A stretch of 64,000 nt of DNA from a virus (IMGVR_UViG_2597490230_000001:25917-89916), one strand, 5' to 3'. Numbered from the stretch's first letter, positions 14,188 through 62,125 are shown. Numbers and translations: made by a program. The notes: generated from the letters alone by a model not told the origin.

Positions 14188-14616
14188 TTAATCCTCCAAG
14201 GATGTAAAAGCTTTTGTTTCTTCAATCTCTGTAGCCAAGTCACCAACATCACCTTCATTAATACAGGACTGTAAAATCCAAGTCATTTGGTGAACTGATG
14301 GAATGAAGTGTGGGGAGTCGTCAATCCAGATATGAGGAACCCACCCGATTTCACGGGTGTGGTGTCGTTTCTGCTTTCCGTTAGTGAAAATTACAGGAAT
14401 ACCTGCTTCTTTAGCGAAACTGAGGACATCCTCATTATCACTTACCCCGTGCTCATGACGGAAGGTGGTGATGCGAACATCCCAACCAATTCCCTTCATC
14501 AAGCAAACAACGGCAGACCAGCCTTCAATATCAGCGCTAACAGTATCATCAAAATCGAGGCCAATTCGAAGCTCCCGAGTCACAGTAGTTTCATCAAAAT
14601 CCATTAGATTGTACAC
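14188..14616 (-). CDS. HAD-superfamily hydrolase (possible nucleotidase)
   Basis: LDFDDTV (DxDxT) motif I. Confidence 0.55.
   Translation of the reverse strand: MYNLMDFDETTVTRELRIGLDFDDTVSADIEGWSAVVCLMKGIGWDVRITTFRHEHGVSDNEDVLSFAKEAGIPVIFTNGKQKRHHTREIGWVPHIWIDDSPHFIPSVHQMTWILQSCINEGDVGDLATEIEETKAFTSLED
14577..14589 (-). repeat. copy of co-oriented 13-bp motif (coding-strand ACTACTGTGACTC)
   Basis: Plus strand gagtcacagtagt. Confidence 0.6.
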
Positions 14617-14816
14617 CCATCGCAGGTCAGGTCACCAAGTAGTGATGCTTGGAGAATTCGAGATGATTCATCAGAATGAAGTGCATCAATTTGCTCTTTC
14701 AGTTCTGAAAGCTTAATGAAATCAATAACATCACCTGGAGTGTATTCAAAATCAGACGTGAAAATGAAGATACCTTCTTTGTTAGGCTCAGAGTAGCGTT
14801 CAATTAGTGTAGTCAT
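14604..14816 (-). CDS. hypothetical protein
   Basis: 70 aa ORF. Confidence 0.4.
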   Translation of the reverse strand: MTTLIERYSEPNKEGIFIFTSDFEYTPGDVIDFIKLSELKEQIDALHSDESSRILQASLLGDLTCDGCTI

Positions 14817-14825
14817 TATCCTTCC

Positions 14826-15026
14826 TTAGATTTTATCAACACGTTCATAATACATTTCCATCTCTCTGTCCATATTTGAATGGAACATCAATATGAAATC
14901 TTCATCAACTTCGTACCCTATTTCACGAAGTTCCTGTATACACTGTTCTGGCTGGAATCCACGACTCCAACCATCAATCAGCGCTTCATGGAACCGGGTA
15001 CCATCTTTATACCCAGTGGTTCTCAT
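14826..15026 (-). CDS. hypothetical protein
   Basis: 66 aa ORF. Confidence 0.4.
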   Translation of the reverse strand: MRTTGYKDGTRFHEALIDGWSRGFQPEQCIQELREIGYEVDEDFILMFHSNMDREMEMYYERVDKI

Positions 15027-15028
15027 AA

Positions 15029-15250
15029 TTAACGAACCTTCTTATAAGTGTAAACACCTTCCTGAACCATTTTAGAAAGACCAGGTAAGACGGTTACTTT
15101 ATAAATATCAGCAGTTGTGATAGTCTGAGGACTACCATTCTGTAGGATATTTTTCTTATGAGCTCGTGCTTCTGCTCGTGTTTTGTGAATAGATTTCATC
15201 TCGAAACCATAAGAGTAAACGAAATGAACTTCCCATTGAACTTTAGACAT
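15029..15250 (-). CDS. hypothetical protein
   Basis: 73 aa ORF. Confidence 0.4.
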   Translation of the reverse strand: MSKVQWEVHFVYSYGFEMKSIHKTRAEARAHKKNILQNGSPQTITTADIYKVTVLPGLSKMVQEGVYTYKKVR

Positions 15251-15400
15251 GTGTGTATCCTTCCGATTCGAGATTGTTGTGAAAAATTAACCAACCAAGA
15301 GTACCAACTTTTAACACTTAAGTCCATACTCATAAAGGTTAGATACTCTTCAATATCATGACCATAGCACCAAGTGCCATCAGGCCATACATAGTAATCA

Positions 15401-16243
15401 TCACCCACGTTCCATGTGTCCTTCAATTAGTGCCAGAAACTCTGGATTAGTGAAGGCATCTTCTGCTGTTGTGAGGAAGTATTGGATACCATTGGACTCC
15501 ATTTGATACCGTTCACTCATGTCAATTTGAGGATTAACCACAACCAACTTTGCACCACGGTTAATGGCTGGGAACAAGTCCCAAATAAAGTTGATTACTT
15601 GGTTTGAAGCCCCTACCAATATGATAATATCATCAGGCATTATATCATCAAACACATTATACATGTCTTGATACTTTGGAGCCAATTCACCAAAGAAAAC
15701 AACATCAGGTTTACACCAGTGATAATCATCTGGTTCAATCTGAGTGTAACCAATGTTTACACATTGTTCTTCAGAACCCTCTTCGAGTTTATAGCGAAGA
15801 TAATTCAATCTGCCATGAACATGAATAACTTCCTCTTCAGGAATTCCAGCACGTTCAAGCAAATCATCAACGTTTGTTGTGACGTTTTTAACACGACCTT
15901 TATAACGTTCAAACCATTCAGCAATACGGAGGTGAGCCACATTGGGCTCAACTGTTCCTAGCTCTTCACGGCGCTTGTTGTAGAAGGTGTGAGTTTTGTG
16001 GTAGAAGTTTCCACGGAAAGCTTGGATGTTACAAACCTCTTCAAGGTCATACTCATCCCACATAGCTTTACCGCTATCAGTATCAGTGCGGAAAGCACGG
16101 ACTCCACTTGCAACAGAGAGTCCTGCCCCGCTGACTACAATCAGGTTAGGCAAAGGAAACACTCCCATTAGTTTGGAATACAGCTTCAGCAAACCCACGA
16201 GGAGTTGCAGAGCGAATATTCTTAGTCTTAAGTGACTTACCAC
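15401..16243 (-). CDS. Sir2-family NAD-dependent deacylase / ADP-ribosyltransferase
   Basis: GAGLSVASGVRAFR, NVDDLLERAG, HVHG, VVFFGE and VVVNPQ Sir2 motifs; the Zn-ribbon Cys quartet appears incomplete. Confidence 0.7.
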   Translation of the reverse strand: MVSHLRLRIFALQLLVGLLKLYSKLMGVFPLPNLIVVSGAGLSVASGVRAFRTDTDSGKAMWDEYDLEEVCNIQAFRGNFYHKTHTFYNKRREELGTVEPNVAHLRIAEWFERYKGRVKNVTTNVDDLLERAGIPEEEVIHVHGRLNYLRYKLEEGSEEQCVNIGYTQIEPDDYHWCKPDVVFFGELAPKYQDMYNVFDDIMPDDIIILVGASNQVINFIWDLFPAINRGAKLVVVNPQIDMSERYQMESNGIQYFLTTAEDAFTNPEFLALIEGHMERG

Positions 16244-16871
16244 CTAAGAGTTTGTGTTGACGACTGAATCCATCCTCAGGAATCACAGCTCGTTTATCAG
16301 GTTGGAGAAAGCCATTACCTGACCAGATGCAAGTCTTTTTAGGATAAGCATCACGAGGTGCGATGTATTCAGGATACAGAGGATGAACATCGTCAGATGG
16401 TAAATATCCACCATACTCATATGGATGGAAGTTAAAGTCAGGCTTACGCCACAAAGTTGCCAACACACTTACTGGATTCTCAGCACCCCAAGGTGCATTC
16501 CAATGGTCTGCAACAACCTGAACAAACTTGGCCCTCTCAGTAGCTCGAATCTGACATTCAGGGTCAGCTTCAAGTTTCTTTTTGAAGTGGACAGCACCAG
16601 ATACAGCTAAGTCTGTACACTCAGGGAACCCGAACACAAACTTGACTTCATTATCACCAATAATGTCAATGATTTTATCAAGAGTTGATTCGTCATTTTC
16701 AAGCCACATACCAACCTTAACATGATTAGTATCGGCATCAGTTACACCTTCTGGGTGTTGACCATCAAAGCAGAAACACTTGTACCCATTTCGAATCCAA
16801 GGCTGAGCCATGATTCCGGTCAGGTCATACAAGAAAATCGCAGCTTTCATCTTCAACATCCTCATCAGCAT
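16146..16871 (-). CDS. hypothetical protein (weak resemblance of FGFPECTDLAVSGA to C5-methyltransferase motif IV; unassigned)
   Basis: 241 aa ORF. Confidence 0.5.
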   Translation of the reverse strand: MLMRMLKMKAAIFLYDLTGIMAQPWIRNGYKCFCFDGQHPEGVTDADTNHVKVGMWLENDESTLDKIIDIIGDNEVKFVFGFPECTDLAVSGAVHFKKKLEADPECQIRATERAKFVQVVADHWNAPWGAENPVSVLATLWRKPDFNFHPYEYGGYLPSDDVHPLYPEYIAPRDAYPKKTCIWSGNGFLQPDKRAVIPEDGFSRQHKLLGGKSLKTKNIRSATPRGFAEAVFQTNGSVSFA

Positions 16872-17109
16872 AAACAGGAATAATTTTAACTAAGTTCTCA
16901 TGATAACGACGCCAAACACGATATTCATCTACTGGCTCTTTATCGAACTCAAAACGAGGACAAACATCAGTCACATACACATGACCAATGAGTACTTTAG
17001 TATTCACGTTTTCCAACGAAGACTCCGTTCTCCCACTGATGGAGATGTTCAATATCCCAACAATCTGCGACAGCTTCAGCCTGGAATGAATCACAGCGCC
17101 AAGTATCAC
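16825..17109 (-). CDS. hypothetical protein
   Basis: 94 aa ORF. Confidence 0.4.
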   Translation of the reverse strand: MILGAVIHSRLKLSQIVGILNISISGRTESSLENVNTKVLIGHVYVTDVCPRFEFDKEPVDEYRVWRRYHENLVKIIPVYADEDVEDESCDFLV

Positions 17110-17211
17110 CTTCCATTAATCCATCAACGTGCTGACGAGCATAACGAAATGCCTCATGTGTATCAAAGAAATTCATGATACCATGTTCGTCGTAAATCCA
17201 CCAAAATGTTT

Positions 17212-17415
17212 TCATCGTTGTGCCTTAAGTACGTGAACTGGAGAAACAGTGAATCTTTCCCTTTGGGATTCATCAATGCGATTTGTTATAAACTCCCAAG
17301 CTTTATGTTCACTGTCGAACATATAGTAATTGGTGTCTGTATTGGATTGGTCACATGTCATGACAAATTTCCCATCAATCATCCGACCAATTATCCACAA
17401 TTTAGAACCTGCCAT
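17212..17415 (-). CDS. hypothetical protein
   Basis: 67 aa ORF. Confidence 0.4.
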   Translation of the reverse strand: MAGSKLWIIGRMIDGKFVMTCDQSNTDTNYYMFDSEHKAWEFITNRIDESQRERFTVSPVHVLKAQR

Positions 17416-17416
17416 A

Positions 17417-17617
17417 TCAACTCCAAGGCATTTTGGTTAAGTTTCTCATCGAACTTTTGTACGATGGGTGAAGTTTATAGAGACAGCCTCTTTCTACACA
17501 CCAGTCAGTTGCTCTATTCCGTAAGCGTATAAGACCGCAAACAGCACAGACGTGCTTACCAGCATTGCTGTCAAGAAACCATCGGTGTCCTTCCATTCGA
17601 TACTTTTCACTGTCCAT
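17417..17617 (-). CDS. hypothetical Zn-finger protein
   Basis: CAVCG motif. Confidence 0.4.
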   Translation of the reverse strand: MDSEKYRMEGHRWFLDSNAGKHVCAVCGLIRLRNRATDWCVERGCLYKLHPSYKSSMRNLTKMPWS

Positions 17618-17729
17618 TCAACACACCTAAATCTATTAAGAACTTAGATATAATTAACGGGAGGCATACAATTATGAACCACCAGAATACTGCTGCCAGA
17701 AAACAATTAATGCCTCTCATTATCATACC

Positions 17730-19631
17730 TTAGTGAGTGTGTAACCAGGAGCCGCCTAACATAGAGTCAGACGCCAATGGACATTCCATATTCAGAGATT
17801 CACCAGCCTTCTTAACACAAGCATCAATATAAGAGCGAAGAGTTGGAACATCTTCCCATTTGCAAGTGAACTGGAATTCATCGTGCATCATGATAACTTG
17901 GTAAGCTTCCAGACCAGATTTTTCAATCCAACCTGTCAGATAGCAATCTGCAATCTTCATTACGATTGAACCAGCAGACTGTAACATTGTGTTCAAAGCT
18001 TTGTGAGTCATTACTTCGCCGCTGAATGGGTCACGACGCATGATGAGCTTACGACCATCAATTGCTGGAACCCAACCATTCTTGCCAGCGAAATCCTGAA
18101 CCCAATCCATAAGAACTGGAATACAAGGACACTCTTTCAAGAATGCTTCACGAGCTTTCTGACCCTCTTCAAGACCACCACCCAACTGAGCACCTAAGTT
18201 TGCGTTACCAGCGCCATACAAGAACGCATAGATAAACGTCTTAGCTTGCTTACGAGTTGGAAGACCTGCAAGTTTCTGGTTGTGTGAGTGGATATCACCA
18301 TTCAACAGAACTTCACGATATTCTAAAGCTGAATCAAGAGCTTTCTGATAATAAGATTCTTTCTTCTTATCACCACTCTCTTTAGCTTCTTCCAGAAGCA
18401 TCTTAGAAACTGCAATCAGATAATGAGTCAACATACGTAACTCAAGACCTGCACCATCCCCACCAACAAACGCATCTTGACCAGCAGGAATCAGGAATGA
18501 ACAGTGACCTGCGTCTTCCCAACGACCTTTGTCAAACTCCTGCATAATGTTGGTAAGCGGTTTACGTCTGAACTTGCCAGATGCTTCCATCTCAGCAGTC
18601 AGCTTACGAACAAGTTTAGCTGTTGAGCCTTTACGTTTGTCACCTTTGAACAAGTGACGACACTCCTCACCGAATGGTGAACCTGCGGCTGGAATGTTAA
18701 CAATAATCTTATGTCGCATACGTGCTGTAGGAGTCGCACATGGGTTAGCTTCACCCGACAACTTCCCATCCACACGCACCTGCTCAATCAGACCTTGAAT
18801 CAACGAACGACGGTGAGCCCAAATCATTCGTTCTTTCAGAAGTTTGAGAGCGAGACCTTCATCCTCACTCACTGATTCAAATGAATCCTCAGTGATTTTC
18901 GGAGAGGTTGGCCAAAACTGTCGCAGTAGTAACTTCTTTTTAATCTGGTCAAAGTTAGGAACCTTGCGGCTTAGGTCGAAGCCAATTGCCGTCAAGATTG
19001 CTCTCATGTAACCTTTTGATTTTCCACGGAGATGGGAATCTACGAAACCCTCAACCGCTTCTAAGAAAGCTACTTTATCTTCTTTGTCACACTGATTGTT
19101 GATGAAGTTCGCAAACGTTGATTTCTCAAGACGTTTACGATACTGCCACACTTGGAATGGAGTTTTCTTCTCATTCCATTCAGTAGGTAACCAACCCATA
19201 TCCAACATGACATCTTTCAGACGAGATGTTTTACCTGGGTCAAATGGAGTATACCAAACCGCTGAAAACGGTCCGGAGACTTCATCAAGAGTCAGTCCAT
19301 GAGTGTCCATGTATTTCTGCACGAACACTTTCGGCTGGCCATTCATCTTGAACGGTGCTTTATATTCAGTACCTTTGTGCTGCATCGGCGGCAACAGAGG
19401 AACCAACTCAAGGTCAATCTTGAGAATCTTTTCAGTGAGAACATGAACATACCAACGAGCTTGACGCTCATCGAAATTACACCCATGCTTCCATTGTTTT
19501 GAGATTAAATCTGCAACCTTCTGTTCAAGAAGGAAAGGTTTTGTCCAGTCCGGTTTGATATCCATATCTACCTCAATCAGTTCACTTGCCGTACACCTGA
19601 ACCCATTTGGCCAGTTTATTGCTGATAGCAA
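17730..19631 (-). CDS. DNA polymerase I family, polymerase (palm/fingers/thumb) subunit; the exonuclease domain is encoded separately at 26294..26800
   Basis: Motif B RKQAKTFIYAFLYGAG and motif C HDE; no 3'-5' exo motifs in this ORF. Confidence 0.8.
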   Translation of the reverse strand: MLSAINWPNGFRCTASELIEVDMDIKPDWTKPFLLEQKVADLISKQWKHGCNFDERQARWYVHVLTEKILKIDLELVPLLPPMQHKGTEYKAPFKMNGQPKVFVQKYMDTHGLTLDEVSGPFSAVWYTPFDPGKTSRLKDVMLDMGWLPTEWNEKKTPFQVWQYRKRLEKSTFANFINNQCDKEDKVAFLEAVEGFVDSHLRGKSKGYMRAILTAIGFDLSRKVPNFDQIKKKLLLRQFWPTSPKITEDSFESVSEDEGLALKLLKERMIWAHRRSLIQGLIEQVRVDGKLSGEANPCATPTARMRHKIIVNIPAAGSPFGEECRHLFKGDKRKGSTAKLVRKLTAEMEASGKFRRKPLTNIMQEFDKGRWEDAGHCSFLIPAGQDAFVGGDGAGLELRMLTHYLIAVSKMLLEEAKESGDKKKESYYQKALDSALEYREVLLNGDIHSHNQKLAGLPTRKQAKTFIYAFLYGAGNANLGAQLGGGLEEGQKAREAFLKECPCIPVLMDWVQDFAGKNGWVPAIDGRKLIMRRDPFSGEVMTHKALNTMLQSAGSIVMKIADCYLTGWIEKSGLEAYQVIMMHDEFQFTCKWEDVPTLRSYIDACVKKAGESLNMECPLASDSMLGGSWLHTH

Positions 19632-20904: not shown

Positions 20905-21246
20905 TTAATCGGGACGTTTCACTGGTAAGCGTTTGGACTTAGCGCCCTTCTTCCCACCTTTGGACTTCCCTGCCTTACTACCTGACTTGCCACCAGCAGA
21001 CATATTCTCACTAGCATCACGAAGACGCAAGTTAGAGCTGTGGTTATCGCCACCAGATTTCAGAGTTTTCTTGTGGTCAACATGAGTTGAAGTAGGCAAC
21101 TTCTTGCCCATCTCATTTTGAACCTTTCTACGAGCCTTATGACGCATTGCATCACCAGACTTCGCACCTACGCCTGTTTCACCACGTTTAATGGCTGTCA
21201 GACGTTCTTGCTTATAATTACGAACGTATCCAGGACTAGACGGCAT
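20905..21246 (-). CDS. highly basic hypothetical protein (possible DNA-binding)
   Basis: 113 aa, Lys/Arg/Gly-rich. Confidence 0.45.
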   Translation of the reverse strand: MPSSPGYVRNYKQERLTAIKRGETGVGAKSGDAMRHKARRKVQNEMGKKLPTSTHVDHKKTLKSGGDNHSSNLRLRDASENMSAGGKSGSKAGKSKGGKKGAKSKRLPVKRPD

Positions 21247-26293: not shown

Positions 26294-26800
26294 TTATTTG
26301 TAAAATTCGATTAAGCTCGATGGCGGATTGAACGGGTCAAAACCAGCCTTTTCACAAAGGTGCAAATACAGTGCGACTGTTACGTTAACGTCCTGCTCAC
26401 AGTAGTTAAACATGTCCTCGCTGAAAACGTCCCAAACATCTTCACCTTCGCCATAAGTTCCTTTTAAGATGCCAAGTGCAACACCCCAAGACTTAAGGCT
26501 ATGACCGCCTTGACGGTCAGGCTCCAACATACGACTCAGCACAAGCGTATCAAAGACACGCTTAATACGAAATTCGTTCGGGAACAATTTTGCAAGCACT
26601 GGAAAATCGTAATCAATCACGTTGTGGCCAATCACAATATCGTATCCGGCTAAATCCTCCAGATACTCTTTCCATTGCTCAGGACGATACCCTTTACGGA
26701 TACCAGTGGTCGGCTCAATAATCCAAGCACAATGCCACTTGTCTACATCCAGATACAGGTTATTCGTTTCAATATCGGTACAAGCAATTCTTAATGCCAT
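26294..26800 (-). CDS. DNA polymerase I family 3'-5' exonuclease (proofreading) subunit, encoded apart from the polymerase domain
   Basis: Exo I DIET, Exo II HNVIDYD and Exo III YCEQD motifs in a 168 aa ORF ending at a stop. Confidence 0.8.
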   Translation of the reverse strand: MALRIACTDIETNNLYLDVDKWHCAWIIEPTTGIRKGYRPEQWKEYLEDLAGYDIVIGHNVIDYDFPVLAKLFPNEFRIKRVFDTLVLSRMLEPDRQGGHSLKSWGVALGILKGTYGEGEDVWDVFSEDMFNYCEQDVNVTVALYLHLCEKAGFDPFNPPSSLIEFYK

Positions 26801-31157: not shown

Positions 31158-31478
31158 TCATTCTTCGTCACAGTAGTGAACCTCAGCAACACGGGTCACT
31201 GATTTCTTAGTCGGGTTGATACTCGAACCTTGATACCAGCGAGAATCAGAAGAAAGTACATGACCAACCTCTGCTTCTTCAGCAGGCAGAATGGCCACAT
31301 TACAGGTTTCACCCATTGCATCTTTCATATGACTGAAAGGGTTCAGAGAGAAACGTTCGATTTTGTTACACACAGTAACTTTACAGAGACGCTGATTCTT
31401 CAGTTCATCTTTCAGGGATGCTGCTGAACCAAACGAAACGCCTAAACCAATTACTGCAACAAGTAAAGCCTTCTTCAT
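31158..31478 (-). CDS. secreted hypothetical protein
   Basis: N-terminal signal peptide MKKALLVAVIGLGVSFGSAAS. Confidence 0.5.
   Translation of the reverse strand: MKKALLVAVIGLGVSFGSAASLKDELKNQRLCKVTVCNKIERFSLNPFSHMKDAMGETCNVAILPAEEAEVGHVLSSDSRWYQGSSINPTKKSVTRVAEVHYCDEE
31165..31177 (-). repeat. copy of co-oriented 13-bp motif (ACTACTGTGACGA)
   Basis: Plus strand tcgtcacagtagt. Confidence 0.6.
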
Positions 31479-36172: not shown

Positions 36173-38122
36173 TTACTTGTTGTGGCTTGGAACCATTCCC
36201 AGTTCCAATTTTTTAGCGCAGGTTTCACAGCAAGGTGTGCTACCTACGAATTCTGTCGTTGCTGCCTTTTTGAATGGAATTTTATCATGACACCAAGAAC
36301 AGGTGTTCATTTCATTCCACTGAGACAGCGTGACCTTCATCCCATTTTGAAGAGTTTTACGATACGTCAGAATTGGACGAACGTTACCCTTCGGTTTGTT
36401 AGCGTATTTGTTTGCAAAACACTGCAAACAGACACACTCTTTTTCTGACTCTGCATCAACTGGGAGTTCAGTCGAACATTCGATACACTCGAAGCGAAGT
36501 TCTCCCAGTTGAGGCTCCCCCTTTGATTGTGATTCCTTTGGTTCAATGCCGTCAATAAGACCGGCATCTACGCAGGCGTCACAGTAGGCGAAGTCACGGA
36601 ACACAGTGGCATCAGCCATGAAGTCGAAGGGGATTGGAGAGCCACAATTTCCGCAGGAATTTAAACAATCGTGTCTCTCCCACTCCTTTTTTGTGTAGAC
36701 GCTACCATCTCTGGTTACGTCCATTTCGTTACCGTCTGATTCCTCTTCTTCCATTTCTGGGTCTTGAGGGACGTCAACATCATCAGGAGTGTGTGTCTGA
36801 GCAATCAGCGCAGTTCCACGAACAGTTGATGTAATGATATGTTCCATTTCATCATCTTCATCAAAATCATCATCCAAAGGAATTGGAGTGACTTTGACAG
36901 TTTCGTCACGAACATCGCTGACAATCAGAGTCAGAATGTAGTTGGCTTCATAAGCCGAGATAACTTTACCAGAGTACAGTTGCTCACCGCCATAGATGTT
37001 TTTATCAACACCATGACCCTGAACTTCGATGTACTCACCTTCACCAATCCAGCCGGTCAGTTGACCACGCTCAGGATTTTTCGGATACGGTTCGAACTGG
37101 AACGCTTCGAACTTAATACGGTCGCCGATTACAGCATCAACACCGTGGCCCTGAAGCATCTCATTTAACTGATGATGCTTTTCGAGCGTGGCTCTCATCT
37201 CTGATGTTTGATGAGTGTTGCTAGAAACGCGGCTTGGATAGCTGTTAGCCCCGTGCGCATTTCGGCTGGCTCGCCAATCGTAGTCGTCGTAGTCGTCGTC
37301 ATACGAGTTATAACCGCCCGTATTCCAGTTGCGATAGTTGTAAGAATAGGTGGAGCGAAAGGTTGGAAGCTCATGCTTCACCTCCTCCCTAAACTTCAGC
37401 CCATCGGCGGTATCAAAGATATACTGAACACCAACTTCGAGTTCAAACTCTTTTTCAATCGTCGGATTGAACTTCCGGCGAGACATAATCCATTTAATCA
37501 TGTCTTTTTCGGAAGCACCATACCAGTCACCGGTATTGGTTTTCATCATGTAGAAAGGACGCTCATCGTTTCGGATGAAGTTCAGAGTGTTCTCTTTAGC
37601 ATCATGCCAAACCAGAACGAATGCACCATGCAATTTCTTGATGGTTTCAGCGATACCGATTGTAGCAATCGAATAGCAGACGTTTTCACTGTCTACTTCG
37701 AAACGCTTGTGGTCTGGTAACAAGGACTGGTCAACCAGTGAACCGTTGTGAACCAGGGTGATATGCTCATGTTGGAAAGGGTGAGCGTTTTTGTCGTTAA
37801 CCGCACCGGCAGTTGCATAACGGTTGTGACCAACCATGAACTTCGGATTGATTGAAGACGTCGTTGTTGCCTTCGTAACCGGATTAACATTTTTGGTTTT
37901 GTGTTCTTTAACATCATCCCAGATTTGGGAACGAACAAACATGTCACCTGGGATTGCTTTCTTTGCAACCTTAATGAAAGCTTGTTCATTATACGGCTTG
38001 TAATAAGCCATGACGCCAGTTGAGTGCTCACCACGGAAAGTGTCAGCAAACAACATGTTTTCAAAACGTTCGATATTAGCCGACGAAAGTGTCACGCCGC
38101 CCACAAATACGATTCCACACAT
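36173..38122 (-). CDS. class II glutamine amidotransferase (Ntn, N-terminal Cys) fused to a long Cys-rich C-terminal region
   Basis: MCGIVF start, GHNRYATAG...NAHPF and LVHNG motifs; C-terminus carries more than six CxxC pairs. Confidence 0.7.
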   Translation of the reverse strand: MCGIVFVGGVTLSSANIERFENMLFADTFRGEHSTGVMAYYKPYNEQAFIKVAKKAIPGDMFVRSQIWDDVKEHKTKNVNPVTKATTTSSINPKFMVGHNRYATAGAVNDKNAHPFQHEHITLVHNGSLVDQSLLPDHKRFEVDSENVCYSIATIGIAETIKKLHGAFVLVWHDAKENTLNFIRNDERPFYMMKTNTGDWYGASEKDMIKWIMSRRKFNPTIEKEFELEVGVQYIFDTADGLKFREEVKHELPTFRSTYSYNYRNWNTGGYNSYDDDYDDYDWRASRNAHGANSYPSRVSSNTHQTSEMRATLEKHHQLNEMLQGHGVDAVIGDRIKFEAFQFEPYPKNPERGQLTGWIGEGEYIEVQGHGVDKNIYGGEQLYSGKVISAYEANYILTLIVSDVRDETVKVTPIPLDDDFDEDDEMEHIITSTVRGTALIAQTHTPDDVDVPQDPEMEEEESDGNEMDVTRDGSVYTKKEWERHDCLNSCGNCGSPIPFDFMADATVFRDFAYCDACVDAGLIDGIEPKESQSKGEPQLGELRFECIECSTELPVDAESEKECVCLQCFANKYANKPKGNVRPILTYRKTLQNGMKVTLSQWNEMNTCSWCHDKIPFKKAATTEFVGSTPCCETCAKKLELGMVPSHNK

Positions 38123-42374: not shown

Positions 42375-43286
42375 TTATTCCCCTTTATTATCTTTCAGTA
42401 CTTTCTCCCACACCGCCTGAGCAAGCTTCAGGAATTCACTTTCAACAAAGCGATGATGGTTTCCAAAACTGTTGTTGATAGTCAACAGTTCAGTTTTATC
42501 CCAATCTTCCGGGATGTTTTCCAGAGACGTTAACATCGTTGTATCAGTCAGAGTACAACGACGACCGGTACGTGGGTTAACAGGAGCAGAACCGTCCCCA
42601 TAGTTACCATAACGACCGTAGCCTTGCTCAGTGTCACCGAACACACCCTGGTAGATGTGGCCTGTTTCACCTTCGAGCATGTTGATTAAATCAGCGACAG
42701 TTACTTCGTCACCAAATACACACTCGTCTCCACCTGAACCCTGCCAGAACGAGAATTCAGACGAGCCGAAGCTCTTGTTGCACTGATACGTCATTGCCAT
42801 AACAAAAGCAAACGGAACTTCAAAACCACCGGCACGGAGGATGTTGTACGAATTACCGAATGAGCTATACTCAATCAGGTTGCGCAGCATCATCGCACCC
42901 ATCACAGTAGTTTGCATGTTTTGGTCAGCCAGTGGGATATAAATGTCACCGGTATCAAAACCGCCAAGTTCCAGACCTGGATAACTTTCGTCTTCATCCA
43001 GAATCTTAAACCCGCTGAAATACTGCGGGAATGCTGCCAGAATTTCTGGAAGCTCTTTGTTAATCAGTGGGGTTCCATCACACCCAGATGGACCAGGCGA
43101 CCAAACCATATGGCTTAACTCACCAGAAGAGAAACCACTGAGAGGACCGGCTACATACTCGTCCTCTTCGTCGTCCCACTGTTCGTTATCTTCATCCCAC
43201 TGTTCGATGTAGGATAAAAATCCAAAGCAAGGTTTTGCAAACTCTTCGCTCGCACCTCGCTTATTAAACACCGTAGCCATTACCAT
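42375..43286 (-). CDS. hypothetical protein, paralog of 41300..42373
   Basis: See the paralog entry; acidic N-terminus. Confidence 0.4.
   Translation of the reverse strand: MVMATVFNKRGASEEFAKPCFGFLSYIEQWDEDNEQWDDEEDEYVAGPLSGFSSGELSHMVWSPGPSGCDGTPLINKELPEILAAFPQYFSGFKILDEDESYPGLELGGFDTGDIYIPLADQNMQTTVMGAMMLRNLIEYSSFGNSYNILRAGGFEVPFAFVMAMTYQCNKSFGSSEFSFWQGSGGDECVFGDEVTVADLINMLEGETGHIYQGVFGDTEQGYGRYGNYGDGSAPVNPRTGRRCTLTDTTMLTSLENIPEDWDKTELLTINNSFGNHHRFVESEFLKLAQAVWEKVLKDNKGE
42899..42911 (-). repeat. copy of co-oriented 13-bp motif (ACTACTGTGATGG)
   Basis: Plus strand ccatcacagtagt. Confidence 0.55.
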
Positions 43287-49620: not shown

Positions 49621-50262
49621 TTACGCCGCTGGGACTTCGATTTTAGTCGCAGCGTTTGTTTCGTTCAGAGCAATATCAACTTCCTGCTCGAACTCTTCGA
49701 TACCGGACATCTCTTTGGTAATGAAGGCTTGCAGGTCAACAGGCGCAACAATCGAAGGAGTACCACGCTTACGCATGTCTGCAATCGTGTTTTTCACCAG
49801 TTCTTCGTTGCCGTTATCAGCCTGCTCTTTCGAGTAAGCGTCAATACGGTTCTGTAACTCGGTTGTCTTTGTACCGACCGTCGCCGATACTGAACGGAGC
49901 TGCATCTGAAGACGAAGCAGGAACGCTTTACGACTTACGACGAATTTCTTCATCTCAATCGCTTCTGCCAGCGTGTAGTTTTTGCCACCAATCGTCACAG
50001 TAGTTTCGGCATTAGCCTTAACCAGAGCGCGTTTGATAAGCTCACGACGCTGAATCAAACCTTGAAGTGAGTCGAAGTTTGACTTCAACGCAACTTTCAG
50101 GGATTCAACATCTTTGAAAGTGTTATCGTTTGGCTTAGCCACTTCGGCTTCACCGAGGACAACACTAACAACTGGTTGAGCAGCCGCACGTTCAATGCGA
50201 CCACCCAGTGATTTTAATTCTACCAACGCACGAGCGATGGAGATTTTATTCGTTTCCGACAT
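49621..50262 (-). CDS. hypothetical protein
   Basis: 213 aa ORF. Confidence 0.55.
   Translation of the reverse strand: MSETNKISIARALVELKSLGGRIERAAAQPVVSVVLGEAEVAKPNDNTFKDVESLKVALKSNFDSLQGLIQRRELIKRALVKANAETTVTIGGKNYTLAEAIEMKKFVVSRKAFLLRLQMQLRSVSATVGTKTTELQNRIDAYSKEQADNGNEELVKNTIADMRKRGTPSIVAPVDLQAFITKEMSGIEEFEQEVDIALNETNAATKIEVPAA
49992..50004 (-). repeat. copy of co-oriented 13-bp motif (ACTACTGTGACGA)
   Basis: Plus strand tcgtcacagtagt. Confidence 0.6.
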
Positions 50263-53974: not shown

Positions 53975-54208
53975 TCAGACATAATAGTGGAACTCCTTGT
54001 TGTGGAAGATAAACTTCTTACCAAGCAAAGTGCCCACTAAGACGGGAGACGTCACAGTAGTTTTAACTTCCAGAACAACCATTGATTCATTTTCAATCTT
54101 CAGTGGCTTGCTCTTCTTTTGCTTCTTTGTCATTGACTGGCTCCGGTAAACAACGTGGGTTGGATTTTGGGAACCAGTGAATGCGACCATCAGATTGGCG
54201 AATGCCAA
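53975..54208 (-). CDS. hypothetical protein
   Basis: 77 aa ORF. Confidence 0.4.
   Translation of the reverse strand: MAFANLMVAFTGSQNPTHVVYRSQSMTKKQKKSKPLKIENESMVVLEVKTTVTSPVLVGTLLGKKFIFHNKEFHYYV
54049..54061 (-). repeat. copy of co-oriented 13-bp motif (ACTACTGTGACGT)
   Basis: Plus strand acgtcacagtagt. Confidence 0.6.
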
Positions 54209-55513: not shown

Positions 55514-55526
55514 ACCATCACAGTAG
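55514..55526 (-). repeat. copy of co-oriented 13-bp motif (ACTACTGTGATGG)
   Basis: Plus strand ccatcacagtagt. Confidence 0.55.
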
Positions 55527-55693
55527 TTACTGGAGTTTAGGCTCCGAGTGAAGATTACGAGAAGGCTCATAACGGTCATACGTTTTTGAGCCACCAGACT
55601 GCTTGACACTTGCGAAGCGGTCATGATTGAGCGCCTCGATAATATCTTTACAGAAGAAGTCTTTAATGTGTTTCCACATAAATACCTCAGAAG

Positions 55694-55769: not shown

Positions 55770-55775
55770 TATAAA

Positions 55776-56335: not shown

Positions 56336-56340
56336 TGAGG

Positions 56341-56928: not shown

Positions 56929-57108
56929 TTACACCAACTGAGTCCCGAAAGGACGGGTTTGCTCAATCATGTTGATGTTACGGACAATGCCGCGAAGAAT
57001 AACCGCTTCAGATTTCAGAGCACCATTGCTGATGCTTTCCATCTTGGAAGGGCGATTCATACGCTTTTCAGCGTTACGGCGGAATGCTTTGGTGTTACGA
57101 GAATTCAT
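56929..57108 (-). CDS. small basic hypothetical protein
   Basis: ORF trimmed to a Met preceded by AAGGAAG. Confidence 0.35.
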   Translation of the reverse strand: MNSRNTKAFRRNAEKRMNRPSKMESISNGALKSEAVILRGIVRNINMIEQTRPFGTQLV

Positions 57109-57227
57109 TAATGTCTTCCTTAATTTGCATGAGGAGAGTTTCTTTAGATACGGCACAACCCGTACCATTACAAGCGGTGCATGTCCATTCATTGAATGAC
57201 ATATCACCAGGTTCAGCGTCGTTGCAA

Positions 57228-57545
57228 CTACCGCCCCCGTAACAAACGGGACACTTCATGTCCTCGACGTGGCGCTTTAAGTTCCGGTAAAAGCCTGTAG
57301 GCTGAGGCATTGAATCGTGCTCCTGTGAAGATAAGACCTTCACCAGAACACTGATATGGCGTCAGGTCAGTTGATTTGAAGAACATTTCACGAGCAAAAG
57401 CTCGGAACTTACTCATCAAACTGTGCATCGTATCATAACGATGTTGGCAGATACTGAGCTTATAGAACTGGCCATTACATTTGAAGTAAAGAGCATCACG
57501 GTCTTTATCCAATGCTTTCTTATATACGGTAACGATAAGAGCCAT
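57228..57545 (-). CDS. hypothetical protein
   Basis: Start chosen at MALIVTVYKK after GGAG; ATGA overlap with the upstream gene. Confidence 0.45.
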   Translation of the reverse strand: MALIVTVYKKALDKDRDALYFKCNGQFYKLSICQHRYDTMHSLMSKFRAFAREMFFKSTDLTPYQCSGEGLIFTGARFNASAYRLLPELKAPRRGHEVSRLLRGR

Positions 57546-57546
57546 T

Positions 57547-57828
57547 TTATTTTCTCCAGACCGGTTTGACTTTACCAGGGTTAAACCATATCCATCTTTT
57601 TGAAATGATTCCGGCATATGGACCACCTTCGGGGAGCTTACGATAACCTTTCCACCAGACACGCTTGAGATAACCATCAGCGTCTAACTCACCGATACGA
57701 ACATAGCCACGCTTAGTAGCATAACGTTTTGCAGTGAGCAGGTTATGTCTGACGTAAACCACTTCGTTTTTCTTAGTCATAATGACATAAGTTTCAGCGG
57801 GGAATTTGAGCACTGAGTCAGCCGTCAT
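57547..57828 (-). CDS. hypothetical protein
   Basis: 93 aa ORF; its start codon lies inside a variant copy of the 13-bp repeat. Confidence 0.5.
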   Translation of the reverse strand: MTADSVLKFPAETYVIMTKKNEVVYVRHNLLTAKRYATKRGYVRIGELDADGYLKRVWWKGYRKLPEGGPYAGIISKRWIWFNPGKVKPVWRK

Positions 57829-57834
57829 AGTAGT
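57822..57834 (-). repeat. variant copy of 13-bp motif (ACTACTATGACGG), overlapping a start codon
   Basis: Plus strand ccgtcatagtagt. Confidence 0.45.
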
Positions 57835-58196
57835 TAAGCCTTTTCTAAGAGCTTGTCGCTCTCACGTTTAAATTCTTCAATCAAACCATCATCAGGTTGG
57901 ATTGGTAAAAGATTTTCTTCTGCAACAAACGCATAACCTTCTGGTAAATCGACCACAACCATCGGGTTGTGATAACCATCTTTCCGTATCAACCAGAGGT
58001 TTTTACCAGAAAGATTTAAGTTATAGGTTGTGTCTGGGAAGATTACACAAGAGCCACGCCATACACCATCTTCATCAGCATCTACAACAGCCATACGCTG
58101 AACAAGTAAGACAGTTCTACCTACCAAATGTTTCTTTCCGTGATTAGTACGAGCACCAATCACAAGAGCATTCTCACCAGGAATTAAACCTTTCAC
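57834..58196 (-). CDS. hypothetical protein (GTG start)
   Basis: 120 aa; AAGGAG RBS 8 nt upstream; promoter-like motif just upstream. Confidence 0.5.
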   Translation of the reverse strand: MKGLIPGENALVIGARTNHGKKHLVGRTVLLVQRMAVVDADEDGVWRGSCVIFPDTTYNLNLSGKNLWLIRKDGYHNPMVVVDLPEGYAFVAEENLLPIQPDDGLIEEFKRESDKLLEKA

Positions 58197-58204
58197 AGTG
58201 AACT

Positions 58205-58227
58205 CCTTATTATATGTGGATTAACTG
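58205..58227 (-). promoter_or_regulatory. conserved promoter-like motif CAGTTAATCCACATATAATAAGGAG (contains a perfect TATAAT)
   Basis: Directly upstream of the RBS of 57834..58196. Confidence 0.45.
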
Positions 58228-58526
58228 ACTAATAAATACTCAGAGAATACTCATTAGTGAGTTGCCAGTCTCTTCCTGGCAGTCAAACCTAATCGGTGTC
58301 ATAGCGGTTAACTATGTATGCGAGGGAAATCTCCATGTGGGAGCAAAACCTCCACCTAACTCATTCATTCCTGTTCCAACGTGCTCGGCCAAAGGAGGAG
58401 ACCTTATCTGTACAACGAGTTGGTAGACTCACAGAGGGCTACATTGGGGAACTGTCCCATCTCAGGGAATTGACGATGAGCTGCCGCCTTCAGCAACGCA
58501 GACTAGCGTCTACAGCAGTGTTATTT

Positions 58527-58682
58527 CTCGGTCAGATACTTAATATCTGCCAGGATTTTGAATTGTTGCCCACAGTGAGTGCAGGTAACACGAATCTGGT
58601 CGAACTGACGTACACGATATGCAATCGTCCACGGTGTAACTTCTTTCTTACCCTCGCAATGAGGACAAGTAACAAACATCTT
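58527..58682 (-). CDS. small Zn-ribbon protein (51 aa; not in the ORF track)
   Basis: MFVTCPHCEGKKEV...VTCTHCGQQF with two CxxC pairs. Confidence 0.4.
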
Positions 58683-58962
58683 ATCCACTTTTGATTACCT
58701 CTGTTTTAAATGTGTAGTCTGCACGAATATTGAATTCGGTTTCGCAGCCAGAGCATTTACGTTTAATGGGAGCGCCAGCCTTAACAAGACCAGAGACGCT
58801 ATCAGACAAATTACCCCGTGTACCACACACGGGGCAAAAGAAAGCATTTTTGAAAATATCCATGCTACCAACCACGGATAGTGTTGTTACGGCGTACAGA
58901 GTACTCTTCTTCACGCAGACGGCGAAGGTTTTCGCTAATCTGTTGTGTTTCAGATTTCTCAT
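58681..58962 (-). CDS. Zn-ribbon hypothetical protein
   Basis: CPVCG...CSGCE motifs. Confidence 0.45.
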   Translation of the reverse strand: MRNLKHNRLAKTFAVCVKKSTLYAVTTLSVVGSMDIFKNAFFCPVCGTRGNLSDSVSGLVKAGAPIKRKCSGCETEFNIRADYTFKTEVIKSG

Positions 58963-59028
58963 TCTTCTTATTCAGAAGACGCTCACGACGGTCTAAGTCA
59001 CGCTCAGTCTGTCCGATAACAGCAGGTT

Positions 59029-59406
59029 TCATTTCTTTGGTATCCATCTTCTCTGTTGGAAATTAATGCTCCGAGCATACAGTGCCAAGTGATTAGCACG
59101 ATTGGCGATTACTTCAAGCGGGATGTCACCCTGCTCAAGCCCGGCGTCACAGTAGTACTTCTGGTGCAGACAAACACCCATCGCATATTCTCGACGGTTC
59201 TGCCAGATAGTAAAGAAGTCGTCCAACATCTCATCACTGAATTTGATGTATGGGTCAGACTTCATTCGGTTGATTGCCTCCGGTGATAGAGGCAACGGAG
59301 AGTGAGGCTTCATTGTGTGCTCATACAAGTCACACATCATAGGCTTCACTGCTTTGTAATTCTCGTACTGCTCAGGGGTGAAGTGCGTTATCTCTGCCCG
59401 TACCAT
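59029..59406 (-). CDS. hypothetical protein
   Basis: 125 aa ORF. Confidence 0.5.
   Translation of the reverse strand: MVRAEITHFTPEQYENYKAVKPMMCDLYEHTMKPHSPLPLSPEAINRMKSDPYIKFSDEMLDDFFTIWQNRREYAMGVCLHQKYYCDAGLEQGDIPLEVIANRANHLALYARSINFQQRRWIPKK
59144..59156 (-). repeat. copy of co-oriented 13-bp motif (ACTACTGTGACGC)
   Basis: Plus strand gcgtcacagtagt. Confidence 0.6.
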
Positions 59407-59773
59407 TTAGAACCTTCGCTTTATTAGCCTCACCTACAACATAATACGAACCCCAGAGAGGTGTATAAATCTTGCAAGACTGAGAAGGGTTATCGACACA
59501 ACCTGTTTGCACATCAGCGAGTTTGAGGATATCGACTAACGTCTTTTCCTCAGTTTCTCTCGCACCCATCTCGACAGCTTCAAGATAGCTATCGAAAACA
59601 ACATCAAGACAAGTATCAGAATCGCCTTGAGAAGAAGCATCACACACCACCTTAGCGTCGTCGTTCATTTCGTCAACGAGTGCTTGCGGCAGAAACAGGT
59701 CAGCTTCATGTGCAAGCGCAGGAGCTGGATGACAAGCAGTCATCAGCAGGATTACCAATAAACGTTTCATCAT
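59372..59773 (-). CDS. secreted or lipoprotein-like hypothetical protein
   Basis: Signal peptide MMKRLLVILLMTAC with Cys near the cleavage site. Confidence 0.5.
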   Translation of the reverse strand: MMKRLLVILLMTACHPAPALAHEADLFLPQALVDEMNDDAKVVCDASSQGDSDTCLDVVFDSYLEAVEMGARETEEKTLVDILKLADVQTGCVDNPSQSCKIYTPLWGSYYVVGEANKAKVLNGTGRDNALHP

Positions 59774-60012
59774 TTGATAACCTCTAAAGATTTGATACTA
59801 CGGGCTTCAACTGCCCCATCAGACCACTTAACCCACACACGCTGGATGTTTCCGGTGAACGCTGTAATGGTTCCGAACACCTGCTGGGTTGGTCGTGCAT
59901 AGCGATAAAGCACTTTCTTATTTAACAGCACTTCACGCTGTACCTGACTAACAGGTGCGCCGTTGTTGTTATCGAGAGAGGCTTTTAATAATTGGAAAGC
60001 TGATTGACGCAT
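59770..60012 (-). CDS. hypothetical protein
   Basis: 80 aa ORF. Confidence 0.45.
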   Translation of the reverse strand: MRQSAFQLLKASLDNNNGAPVSQVQREVLLNKKVLYRYARPTQQVFGTITAFTGNIQRVWVKWSDGAVEARSIKSLEVIK

Positions 60013-60101
60013 GATTTACATCCCCAAAGCTGCGGCAAATAACAGGCCGCCGAACACACCAGTGGCGCACAATGCAACCACACCAGATACAACAGAACGC
60101 G

Positions 60102-60114
60102 CCGTCACAGTAGT
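60102..60114 (-). repeat. copy of co-oriented 13-bp motif (ACTACTGTGACGG)
   Basis: Plus strand ccgtcacagtagt. Confidence 0.6.
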
Positions 60115-60140
60115 ATTACGAGTTGCCATGAGTGAGCACC

Positions 60141-60503
60141 TTAACCATTGCATATGGGTTGATGGAAGTAATGTCGCCAGTTTCCAGAACTTTGGCACGA
60201 ACTTCGGAGAAATACACCCCTCCATTTTCGTAGGATTAAAAACGTTTCAGAATTGAAGTTGTTCTTATCATCTACCATACGAACAACATCATTCACATCA
60301 AGTGCGCCAGCTTCTACTGGTTCAACTACCTGAGTAGGTAGGAATTCGCACGCTGCATACGGCGGGAACTTAACCATACGCTTAGAATCTTCGTCGATAG
60401 CCAGTACATTGTCATACTCGCCATACATACGGATGCACACGAACACCGCGCCGTTTGATTTAAAACGTTCGCCGATATTCAATTCAAACATTTCTTTACG
60501 CAT
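60141..60503 (-). CDS. hypothetical protein
   Basis: 120 aa ORF. Confidence 0.5.
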   Translation of the reverse strand: MRKEMFELNIGERFKSNGAVFVCIRMYGEYDNVLAIDEDSKRMVKFPPYAACEFLPTQVVEPVEAGALDVNDVVRMVDDKNNFNSETFLILRKWRGVFLRSSCQSSGNWRHYFHQPICNG

Positions 60504-60505
60504 GG

Positions 60506-60694
60506 TTAACTCCAGATATCACGTTTAACATGGATGTTAATTTGTGGCTTGCTACCAAACAGAGCCACACGAATTGCAGGCCACAAGGCAAGAATCAGGA
60601 AAACGCTTGCCAACATGTTGCCACCCATGAGCCAGAAGAAGGCAGCCAGGAACAGGAACAGTACGGACAGAACAACAGTCAGAAACGTTTTCAT
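60506..60694 (-). CDS. small membrane protein
   Basis: 62 aa with two TM helices. Confidence 0.5.
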   Translation of the reverse strand: MKTFLTVVLSVLFLFLAAFFWLMGGNMLASVFLILALWPAIRVALFGSKPQINIHVKRDIWS

Positions 60695-60696
60695 AA

Positions 60697-61410
60697 TTAA
60701 CCCTTAAACAGGTTCCAGTGGATACGCAAAGCTTCCACATCTAATTTGACACGGTGTGCTTTGAGTCCATTACCCTCATACAGAGCCGCATAAGGGTGAT
60801 TACATTTAAAGTGAACCGTCAAAGTATCAGGATTGATACTCATCAGGTGGTTGTCAAACAACAGGTGCAAATCAGCACTCATGAGAATGCCGTTTGAAGT
60901 GTTGTTGTTCTTATCATCTGCAAACGGGCTAATATGAGCAGCTTGCAGGCACTGAGTAACATTGTGGCCAGTGATTGCACACGAGCCACCGAAATTCATT
61001 GATACACGATTGCGGAAGTCAGACTGACCAGTACGAACTTCAACAGTGCGCTGAACAGTAGAACCTTTGCGCTCAACAGGGGCAGCCGTCACAGTAGTTT
61101 GTGACTCTACTCTACGTGCAGGAGCTGGACGCTGAGGGTGATACGTCACTGTTTCAGCTGTTGCCCTTGCCTCTGCTTCCATTCTAGCCTGTCGACGACG
61201 CTCTTTAGCACTACCTTTGTGTGAGATTTCATTCAGGCGTTTAGCTTGTCCAGCCATTAACTCAGCAATGATAGCATCTTGTTCTTCCTTAGTGGATGAA
61301 CTAACCTCTTCCGTTGTTTCGAAAGATTTAGATACTAGCTTAGAAGCTCCCTTAAACTGGACTCTTACTGGTTTATTTTTGCCTGAATAAATCATGGTTA
61401 GAAACCCCAC
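60697..61410 (-). CDS. HNH endonuclease (HNH_2-type) with N-terminal extension
   Basis: C-terminal GGSCAITGHN...CLQAAHISPF...NGILMSADLHLLFD motif. Confidence 0.65.
   Translation of the reverse strand: MGFLTMIYSGKNKPVRVQFKGASKLVSKSFETTEEVSSSTKEEQDAIIAELMAGQAKRLNEISHKGSAKERRRQARMEAEARATAETVTYHPQRPAPARRVESQTTVTAAPVERKGSTVQRTVEVRTGQSDFRNRVSMNFGGSCAITGHNVTQCLQAAHISPFADDKNNNTSNGILMSADLHLLFDNHLMSINPDTLTVHFKCNHPYAALYEGNGLKAHRVKLDVEALRIHWNLFKG
61086..61098 (-). repeat. copy of co-oriented 13-bp motif (ACTACTGTGACGG)
   Basis: Plus strand ccgtcacagtagt. Confidence 0.6.
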
Positions 61411-61607
61411 ACGTTATTTGTGTAACTCACACCTGTAGGCCGTGACGTGTCCGCCATTGACCTATCGTGTGCTTTCTTGATGTTAGCCTTGAGTTGTTTT
61501 CTCTCAGCCTGTAGACGTTTGTAGAGCTTTTTGCTCTTGACACGCGGAACACAGCGGCCTTTACACTTTTGAAGATGTTCGAGGTCGTTCCACGTTTTAC
61601 TAGCCAT
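61398..61607 (-). CDS. small basic hypothetical protein
   Basis: Start ATG overlaps the stop of the upstream gene (ATGGCTAG). Confidence 0.4.
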   Translation of the reverse strand: MASKTWNDLEHLQKCKGRCVPRVKSKKLYKRLQAERKQLKANIKKAHDRSMADTSRPTGVSYTNNVWGF

Positions 61608-61960
61608 GACGTAAACCTTTAGCGTGTTTAGTGCCAGCTTTACGTGCCTTATGAATGCGAGGCTCTTTCTTTTTCGCATTCTTGCGTGGCTTTTCTGCCT
61701 TAGCAGCGAGCATAGCAGGTGTGTAGGTACGCTCATCACCCAGCTTAATTGTTTCACCTGACACTTTGGTCTTGAAGCCGTGTTGACTCACCTGGTAGTG
61801 CAGACACTTACGCTTACGACCGTCTAAGAGTTTTGTAGTCAGTTCACTGGCACTCTTACGACCTCCTATCGGCGAAAGGGCTTGCTTGCGTTTAGGCTGG
61901 CGAGATTTACCCTTTGGTTTGACTGCGTAGATTGACGCATTCATGATGAATTGAACAGAC
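61600..61960 (-). CDS. basic hypothetical protein
   Basis: Lys/Arg-rich; start trimmed to MSVQFIMNAS. Confidence 0.45.
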
Positions 61961-62112
61961 ATACTAACCCCTTTGTCAGTTAAATGGTGTGGCAATTGAG
62001 GGACTGCCACCAACCTATCGTCATTGGAAGCTACTTACGCACTAATCGGGCGCTAACCGAACCTACGCGCTGGCTTATGCCTACCTTTCCCGCGCTACGT
62101 TGCAAGGGGGAA

Positions 62113-62125
62113 CCGTCACAGTAGT
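62113..62125 (-). repeat. copy of co-oriented 13-bp motif (ACTACTGTGACGG), intergenic
   Basis: Plus strand ccgtcacagtagt. Confidence 0.6.

Follow-up and report, generated by a model that had tools for sequence, protein, structure and literature searches.

Why should a short asymmetric DNA word recur along a single strand over almost the whole of a long phage gene arm, crowding toward one end of it? The DNA in which this question arose is a stretch of 64,000 nucleotides (IMGVR_UViG_2597490230_000001:25917-89916, hereafter the window), which megablast matched at 100% identity to Salmonella phage 7-11 (HM997019/NC_015938, 89,916 bp, Grimontviridae, Moazamivirus) as positions 25917-89916 of that record. 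The record position is thus the window position plus 25,916, and the right end of the record is the end of the window. The first 4.5 kb of the window belong to the far end of the rightward late arm, and the remainder is a long leftward early/middle arm. A sequence-only reading of the window had listed eleven co-oriented copies of the word, leaving its possible roles unranked and a known nick consensus, that of the Pseudomonas putida phage tf, unrecognised. We propose, as a prediction based on homology, that the motif probably marks programmed, site- and strand-specific nicks of the tf type in packaged 7-11 DNA.

All eleven copies lie where the sequence-only reading had placed them and six more had been missed (1795, 5875, 9464, 18920, 26396 and 36578). 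The 11-mer GTCACAGTAGT has nine exact copies in the window, not eight, the one at 5875 having been overlooked. At no more than one mismatch there are 17 copies, 17 on the plus strand as written and 0 on the other, so the claim of a single orientation holds. In 100 dinucleotide-preserving shuffles the mean was 1.39 and the maximum 4, and the observed count was never reached. A genome-wide comparison with Markov expectation, which the sequence-only reading had proposed, gave the same picture: the 89,916-bp genome has 14 minus-strand copies of CTACTGTGA and a single plus-strand copy, against 0.3-0.45 expected per strand under Markov orders 1-3, and the word is its top 9-mer and 10-mer for strand asymmetry. 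From the information profile of the 17 good copies we derived a 12-nt element on the minus strand, A C T A C T G T G A C G (ACTACTGTGACG); in the 12 nt before it and the 11 nt after it no further conserved element appears, in agreement with the earlier argument against a bipartite promoter. Exact matches to TACTRTGMC number 12 on the minus strand of the 7-11 genome, all inside the window (strand ratio of the 9-mer, 12:1), and consist of ten TACTGTGAC (GTGAC), one TACTGTGCC (GTGCC) and one TACTATGAC (ATGAC).

The copies are distributed along the arm without regard to protein sequence. Their host open reading frames (ORFs) are unrelated and their flanks uninformative, and, as had been claimed, the motif is read in different frames. 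The frame counts given earlier (five TTVT and three YCD) have to be revised to TTV(T/K/M) in eight and YC(D/E) in six, with a third frame in one near-cognate copy. By placement, two copies span annotated start codons (gp089 and gp138x), two fall between genes and one is antisense in gp026. Together, the multiple frames and the start-codon, intergenic and antisense copies indicate that the constraint on the motif is at the level of the nucleic acid and not the protein, as the sequence-only reading had concluded. Sixteen of the 17 good genome copies lie on the coding strand of their own gene, including the lone plus-strand copy of the late arm. Spacing falls with position (Spearman rho -0.75, p = 0.002), so that copies crowd at the right, early end. 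The shrinkage noted earlier therefore stands, with a different starting value: with the added sites, gaps fall from about 4-12 kb, not 17 kb, to about 1 kb, the last four measuring 958-1322 bp.

We then compared the motif among relatives, another check that had been proposed. In Salmonella phage pSal-SNUABM-01 (about 82% nucleotide identity), 13 minus-strand copies and one plus-strand copy stand at orthologous places. Over 15 aligned sites the 11-nt core is identical at 161/165 positions (97.6%) and the 40-nt flanks at 895/1099 (81.4%; Fisher p = 2e-9), the core differences being confined to the degenerate position or the trailing base; at two further sites the motif is kept despite replacement of the flanks. 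More distant relatives, in which the motif family was counted as TACKRTGAC, are also strand-biased. Cronobacter phage GAP52 carries cTACGGTGACg (the TACGGTGAC form; strands 8:1). Proteus phage P59 has six TACTGTGAC and three TACGGTGAC (9:0), Aeromonas phage LAh_8 has ACTACGGTGAC (5:2 for the 9-mer and 8:2 for CTACKRTGA), and Pantoea phage TacPo2 has eight ACTACTGTGAC and two ACTACTATGAC (10:0). With both forms on one strand, P59 points to a nickase that accepts either T or G at position 4. Three uncultured IMG/VR relatives contain 3-5 sense-strand and 0 antisense copies per 20 kb, compared with means of 0.4 and 0.15 per 20 kb in 76 unrelated control loci scanned with the same query. These comparisons indicate that the DNA word itself is under selection.

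The enrichment is limited in its distribution. Phages of the phiEco32 group, of which phiEco32 and Bas92 were scanned fully, show no motif enrichment though most replication genes are common, and it is also absent from Vibrio phage 1.262.O. A search of phiEco32 and Vibrio phage 1.262.O for dispersed k-mers found nothing comparable, and in a wildcard k-mer search of the same two genomes for a hidden motif codon-periodic words swamped the output. Two other dispersed words were observed in this survey. GAP52 has a second repeat, AATTATTGCACATTAT, with five minus-strand copies and one plus-strand copy (L003 30220, 30563 and 37306; L005 record 52863 and 66646), which may be a promoter class. The seven copies of AATCAGCTT in phiEco32 are all on the plus strand; they are scattered through both arms, share no longer consensus and are of borderline significance.

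The probable identity of the motif comes from a phage of another host. Fourteen single-strand interruptions with the consensus 5'-TACT/RTGMC-3' were mapped in the DNA of tf by run-off sequencing of native DNA, primer extension and alkali fragmentation that ligase reversed (Glukhov et al. 2012, PMC3517423). Nicking was lost when position 1, 3 or 4 was substituted, in a test that did not extend to positions 6 and 9; the TACTGTGCC variant was nicked equally well, and the base 3' of the nick was always a purine (PMC3517423). In Rembedalsseter phage, strand-specific Nanopore coverage drops at WACTRTGAC, a motif over-represented in 61 related Pseudomonas phages (Dougherty et al. 2025, PMC11780129). 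The nicks are annotated in the tf record as sci1-14 and comprise eleven TACTGTGAC, two TACTGTGCC and one TACTATGAC; their spacing changes with position (rho 0.69, p = 0.02) as a mirror of the 7-11 pattern. Three of them coincide exactly with start codons: sci1 with that of tf_04, sci4 with that of tf_15 and sci11 with that of tf_41. We read the 7-11 motif as nick sites because its core is identical to this consensus. In addition, 7-11 shares with phages of the tf/LUZ24 type the restriction to one strand, the uneven density, the conserved positions and the lineage. The last of these is seen in shared genes that keep a common order (among them terminase, portal, capsid, DNA polymerase with a separate exonuclease subunit, primase-helicase, 5'-3' exonuclease and an amidoligase/aminotransferase cluster), and it indicates that 7-11 and tf are distant relatives. 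Phage 7-11 has the two convergent arms and the common replication/amidoligase module of this lineage, with assignment to the family Grimontviridae and not to the Bruynoghevirus group.

By this homology, a phage nuclease active late in infection would recognise 5'-ACTACTGTGACG-3' on the minus strand (the one that codes for the leftward early/middle arm) and would cut between T4 and G5 of TACT^GTGAC. The ends, as in tf, would be a 3'-OH and a 5'-phosphate and hence ligatable. The minus strand in the virion would then carry about 12-16 breaks at fixed sites, with intervals of about 1 kb near the early end that widen to 4-12 kb further along the arm; host ligase or the phage ligase gp043 would close them soon after the next infection begins. 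For the timing of cutting and sealing we follow what the tf paper summarises for T5 and the phiKMV-like phages (PMC3517423). Published ideas on the role of such nicks are an aid to packaging or a link with gene expression (PMC11780129, PMC3517423). The layout in 7-11 fits a role at the early-gene end of the genome, such as ease of packaging or ejection, or torsional relief; that relief would act on the non-template strand during the first transcription of injected DNA is speculation on our part. A transcription-coupled role for the sites would also be compatible with nicking. Our literature search found no report of nicks or of the motif for 7-11 or any member of Grimontviridae; what is new here is the predicted extension of a known nick class to the 7-11 lineage, the TACG/GTGAC variant in its sister genera, and a candidate enzyme.

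The individual sites, given here in window coordinates and all on the minus strand, are sequence-based predictions of nicking. Nearest the early end, ACTACT^GTGACG at 62114..62125 has the full TACTGTGAC consensus, with the predicted break between 62120 and 62119; in pSal-SNUABM-01 its motif is kept and its flanks are replaced. This copy had been called intergenic, and RefSeq places across it gp150, a 56-amino-acid ORF (window 62031-62201, record 87947-88117) that is short, has no noted homologue and is of uncertain coding status. Predicted sites with the sequence ACTACTGTGACG follow at 61087..61098 (within gp147, TTVT frame), 60103..60114 (intergenic) and 59145..59156 (within gp142, YCD frame). 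At 57823..57834 the predicted site is ACTACTATGACG, the TACTATGAC variant typical of LUZ24, and the gene after gp139 is annotated as starting at its ATG, confirming the start-codon overlap noticed earlier at 57.8 kb. A second case is the ACTACTGTGACG site at 31166..31177, whose GTG is the annotated start codon of gp089. Between these two lie a near-cognate ACTACTGTGATG with T at position 9 (55516..55527, intergenic), ACTACTGTGACG sites at 54050..54061 (within gp128) and 49993..50004 (within gp121), a near-cognate ACTACTGTGATG at 42900..42911 (within gp107, kept in pSal-SNUABM-01) and a predicted site CCTACTGTGACG at 36577..36588 (within gp102, an amidotransferase). Toward the late arm we found a near-cognate ACTACTGTGAGC at 26395..26406 (within gp082, kept in pSal-SNUABM-01), a weak and probably non-functional variant ACTACTGCGACA at 18919..18930 (within the DNA polymerase gene), and a predicted site ACTACTGTGACT at 14578..14589 (near the start of gp052), whose orthologue in pSal-SNUABM-01 is TACTATGAC. 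The last three are a near-cognate ACTACTGTGAAG at 9463..9474 (within the DNA ligase gene gp043, kept in pSal-SNUABM-01), a predicted ACTACTGTGACG site at 5874..5885 (within gp033), and a predicted site ACTACTGTGCCG at 1794..1805, which is the TACTGTGCC variant also nicked in tf, lies antisense in the late gene gp026 and is kept in pSal-SNUABM-01.

Two local features accompany some of these sites. Upstream bases and the GTGAC of the motif form an inverted repeat (e.g. GTCAC-TACT-GTGAC) on the minus strand at 62114-62130, 61087-61106 and 31166-31181; the resulting short hairpin or palindrome occurs at these three sites only and at none of the others. A Shine-Dalgarno-like run stands about 10 nt upstream of the in-motif GTG and ATG start codons at 31166-31177 and 57823-57834.

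Several observations weigh against reading the motif as nick sites. The claim for 7-11 and Grimontviridae rests entirely on homology, and Dougherty et al. scanned 250 genomes and saw no enrichment outside the cluster of 61 Pseudomonas phages (PMC11780129). The main GAP52 site differs at position 4, where substitution in tf abolished nicking, and of the window copies five depart from the consensus (position 9 in four, position 6 in one). The sole full copy on the plus strand, gacTACTGTGACga at record 13089 (13087-13098, + strand; outside the window, on the sense strand of the late gene gp013), is an opposite-strand site that is kept in pSal-SNUABM-01 at 13113. The lone late-arm copies of GAP52 (19463) and LAh_8 (62710) are also on the sense strand, unlike those of tf/LUZ24, so a rule that places the motif on the sense strand of genes could still apply.

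Of the other explanations, the one that survives best is a binding or recognition site used without a nick in the virion, for example for priming by the T7-like primase-helicase gp084 (5'-GTC-3' in CGTCACAG, with the plus strand as template) or for a packaging or condensation protein. We consider it unlikely, while acknowledging that the element is strand-specific, dispersed and kept as DNA, that T7-family primases use GTC-containing pentamers, and that the purine always found 3' of the tf nick resembles the first base of a primer. However, twelve conserved bases far exceed the need of a primase, and TACTGTGCC, whose template is GGC, is nicked equally well in tf. The tf nicks are moreover ligatable and precisely placed, unlike primer ends, and the phiEco32 primase is 56% identical to that of 7-11, yet phiEco32 has no motif.

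Quite unlikely, in our view, is a sense-strand signal acting during or after transcription of the leftward unit of about 58 kb with no break in the DNA, by pausing or antitermination or by RNA processing. The coding-strand bias described above, extended by the sense-strand late-arm copies of GAP52 and LAh_8, would be expected of such a signal. It would also suit an arm that is driven by only two early promoters at its right end, with no middle promoters found, and along which motif density falls with distance. Against this, tf and Rembedalsseter carry a physical DNA nick at the same sequence, the late-arm copies of tf/LUZ24 are antisense, and the 7-11 copy at window 1794-1805 is antisense and conserved. 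Folding of 61-nt RNA segments at 15 copies gave z-scores of -2.2 to +1.6 and no common structure, the motif is unlike ops, and primer-extension work on 7-11 reports no 5' ends at the copies, though those places were unprobed there.

That the motif is a promoter, used by host RNA polymerase with sigma-70 or the phage sigma gp47, is very improbable. The published map of 7-11 has eight late promoters, GTAAtg-N16-aCTA, read by gp47 and two sigma-70 early promoters upstream of gene 151, with no middle promoters (PMC8948821). The ACTA of the motif does resemble the downstream aCTA of the gp47 promoters, but GTAA is absent 16-22 nt upstream of every copy and the matches to the late-promoter pattern lie elsewhere (record 1369, 1637, 8366, 11790, 16667, 21918 and 29211 on the plus strand; 38580 and 47456 on the minus strand). 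Nor does the motif look like a sigma-70 promoter (-35 and -10 hexamers with a 16-18 bp spacer upstream of genes): it has no second conserved element, most copies are deep within ORFs, and the validated early promoters are found only upstream of gene 151. MEME searches by two groups for over-represented motifs in intergenic regions found none that was promoter-like, which is understandable given that genes contain most of the copies. An origin by chance or codon bias, or from a protein segment that is repeated, has next to no probability: control loci do show a mild sense-strand excess of TACKRTGAC (23 vs 9 in 1.2 Mb), but 14 copies stand against 0.3-0.45 expected, no shuffle attains the observed count, and we dismiss this explanation because the copies lie in different frames and noncoding positions, with uninformative flanks and a core conserved far above them.

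Among the roles that the sequence-only reading had offered, a nicking (HNH) endonuclease is therefore favoured, by the match to the tf nick consensus and by an HNH protein that co-varies with the motif. Chi-like, promoter or transcription-start and RNA-processing roles find no support in sequence comparison or in the published promoter map. Chi itself, 5'-GCTGGTGG-3', differs from the motif and has 0 and 1 copies on the two strands of 7-11.

Which enzyme might make the nicks? Our literature search found none named for the TACT/RTGMC class. Our candidate is gp068 (20905..21246, minus strand), a 113-amino-acid protein of the HNH (beta-beta-alpha-metal) type that was found by iterated profile searches from tf ORFs. 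From its co-occurrence with the motif, which covers eleven genomes, we tentatively suggest gp068 as the nickase of the motif sites, at somewhat less than even chance. It is 55-57% identical to ORFs of tf, LUZ24 and phiEco32, compared with only 40% between the terminases of 7-11 and tf. The ORFs of tf and LUZ24 (tf 16129-16416, + strand; LUZ24 15622-15933, + strand), whose product is 55% identical to gp068, are in a frame that differs from the annotated tf_29 and gp26, and the homologues are missing from the tf and LUZ24 protein lists because that other frame was annotated; probably the annotated frames are wrong or the genes overlap.

The HNH assignment draws on several lines. All 75 homologues compared keep H58, N72 and N81, and at least 90% keep D57, so that gp068 has the catalytic His, the metal-ligand residue and the two Asn/His of the signature. 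Pfam HNH profiles match 63 of the 75, all weakly (best E 9e-5), PHROGs gives a secondary HNH match, and some database records label homologues HNH endonuclease or McrA. A profile search of gp068 against PDB sequences gave no match to any solved structure; its predicted beta-beta-alpha fold best matches the small phage HNH nickases (Gme HNH 4H9D, GVE2 HNH 5H0O, N.phiGamma and I-HmuI). These cut one strand at short asymmetric sites and share the H-N-N signature with gp068. Unlike them, gp068 has no zinc-binding CxxC pairs, and its gene belongs to the replication module and is not a neighbour of the terminase gene.

In annotated phages, gp068 homologues are limited to the LUZ24-like, 7-11-like and phiEco32-like groups and a few others, and one residue follows the motif. 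Val-Asp-His occurs in the homologues of 8/8 motif-bearing genomes, TacPo2 having been examined as a prediction and agreeing, and Val-Gly-His occurs in those of phiEco32, TH34, Bas92 and SU7, of which the fully scanned phiEco32 and Bas92 have no motif. Vibrio phage 1.262.O has neither a gp068 homologue nor the motif. In Asp-His HNH enzymes such as T4 endonuclease VII and Cas9 the Asp binds metal and, by analogy with such enzymes, Gly in its place plausibly disables the phiEco32-group homologue. The 7-11 gene is the second downstream of the validated late promoter P69, and phiEco32 gene 58 directly follows a phage-sigma promoter.

Other findings count against gp068. The phiEco32-group copy is otherwise well conserved, which implies some function; 20-kb partial contigs around three distant homologues hold 1-2 candidate sites each; and small HNH proteins may also serve as terminase cofactors. 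A phyletic screen found no protein present in all seven motif-bearing genomes yet absent from both motif-less ones. Other proteins were considered and set aside. The endonuclease I gp029 was the only match of the first phyletic screen, and its homologue in the motif-less Vibrio phage 1.262.O is closer (51%) than that of tf (39.5%). Endonuclease VII gp083 has no counterpart in pSal-SNUABM-01 or tf, and phiEco32, though it is without the motif, has a terminase, primase and polymerase nearer to their 7-11 counterparts than those of tf are. A wider proposal, on which we place a little less confidence than on gp068 itself, is that one HNH family, gp068 and its tf/LUZ24 homologues, may be the nickase of the whole TACT/RTGMC class in at least two lineages and several host genera. 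Its specificity would have drifted (T/G at position 4, G/A at position 5) and its activity would have been lost by the Asp-to-Gly change in the phiEco32 group.

Two further genes of the window deserve mention. The ATP-dependent DNA ligase gp043 (8506..9594, minus strand) is present in 5/5 7-11-like genomes compared and is a plausible sealer of nicks after infection. At the end of the late arm, adjoining the spanin gene, gp029 (window 3546-3974, plus strand) is T7 endonuclease I-like (PF05367) and probably a junction resolvase; it has homologues in LUZ24-like phages and several Vibrio phages and none in phiEco32.

If the nick-site prediction is true, the nick problem enters phages of Salmonella, Cronobacter, Proteus and Pantoea, with genetically tractable hosts. 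Natural contrasts are at hand in the switch between TACT/G and TACG/G in sister genera, in the site-less phiEco32-like group and in the HNH signature that follows the pattern. In practical terms, nicked genomes affect the yields of Nanopore and other long-read libraries, and a strand-specific nickase with a 12-base site, if real, would be a useful reagent.

How closely, then, does 7-11 resemble the systems already described? The 9-mer of the tf/LUZ24-like phages (Krylovvirus, Bruynoghevirus and Vicosavirus) is identical to the 7-11 core, TACTRTGMC. Phage tf and 7-11 have the same three variants in similar proportions and a trailing G after the 9-mer. In both, the sites occupy one strand, the coding strand of the early/middle arm, and crowd at the early end of a syntenic replication arm, some of them overlapping start codons through RTG. 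In contrast to tf, 7-11 has an enterobacterial host, belongs to Grimontviridae and has a genome twice as long; its conserved word extends further 5' (AC before TACT) and is looser at position 9, and its sites are known from sequence whereas those of tf were mapped physically. One 7-11 site is on the other strand, whereas the late-arm copies of tf/LUZ24 stay on the same DNA strand and are antisense there. The sister genera of 7-11 depart further, with TACG/GTGAC changed at position 4, and a T-to-C variant at that position is uncut in tf.

Knowledge of programmed phage-DNA nicks goes back to work on T5 in the 1960s-70s, and we know of no phage in which their purpose has been established. The pattern of T5, R/GCGCRGG, is not enriched in 7-11 (4 and 1 copies by strand, without the strand bias of the motif), and the phiKMV pattern CGACNNNNNCCTA/CTCCGG has zero copies there. 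The nicks of T5/BF23 (R/GCGCRGG) and of phiKMV-like phages (CGACNNNNNCCTA/CTCCGG) have recognition sequences and lineages unrelated to those of 7-11, but they are the same kind of feature as the one predicted here: fixed, strand-specific and unevenly spread in virion DNA.

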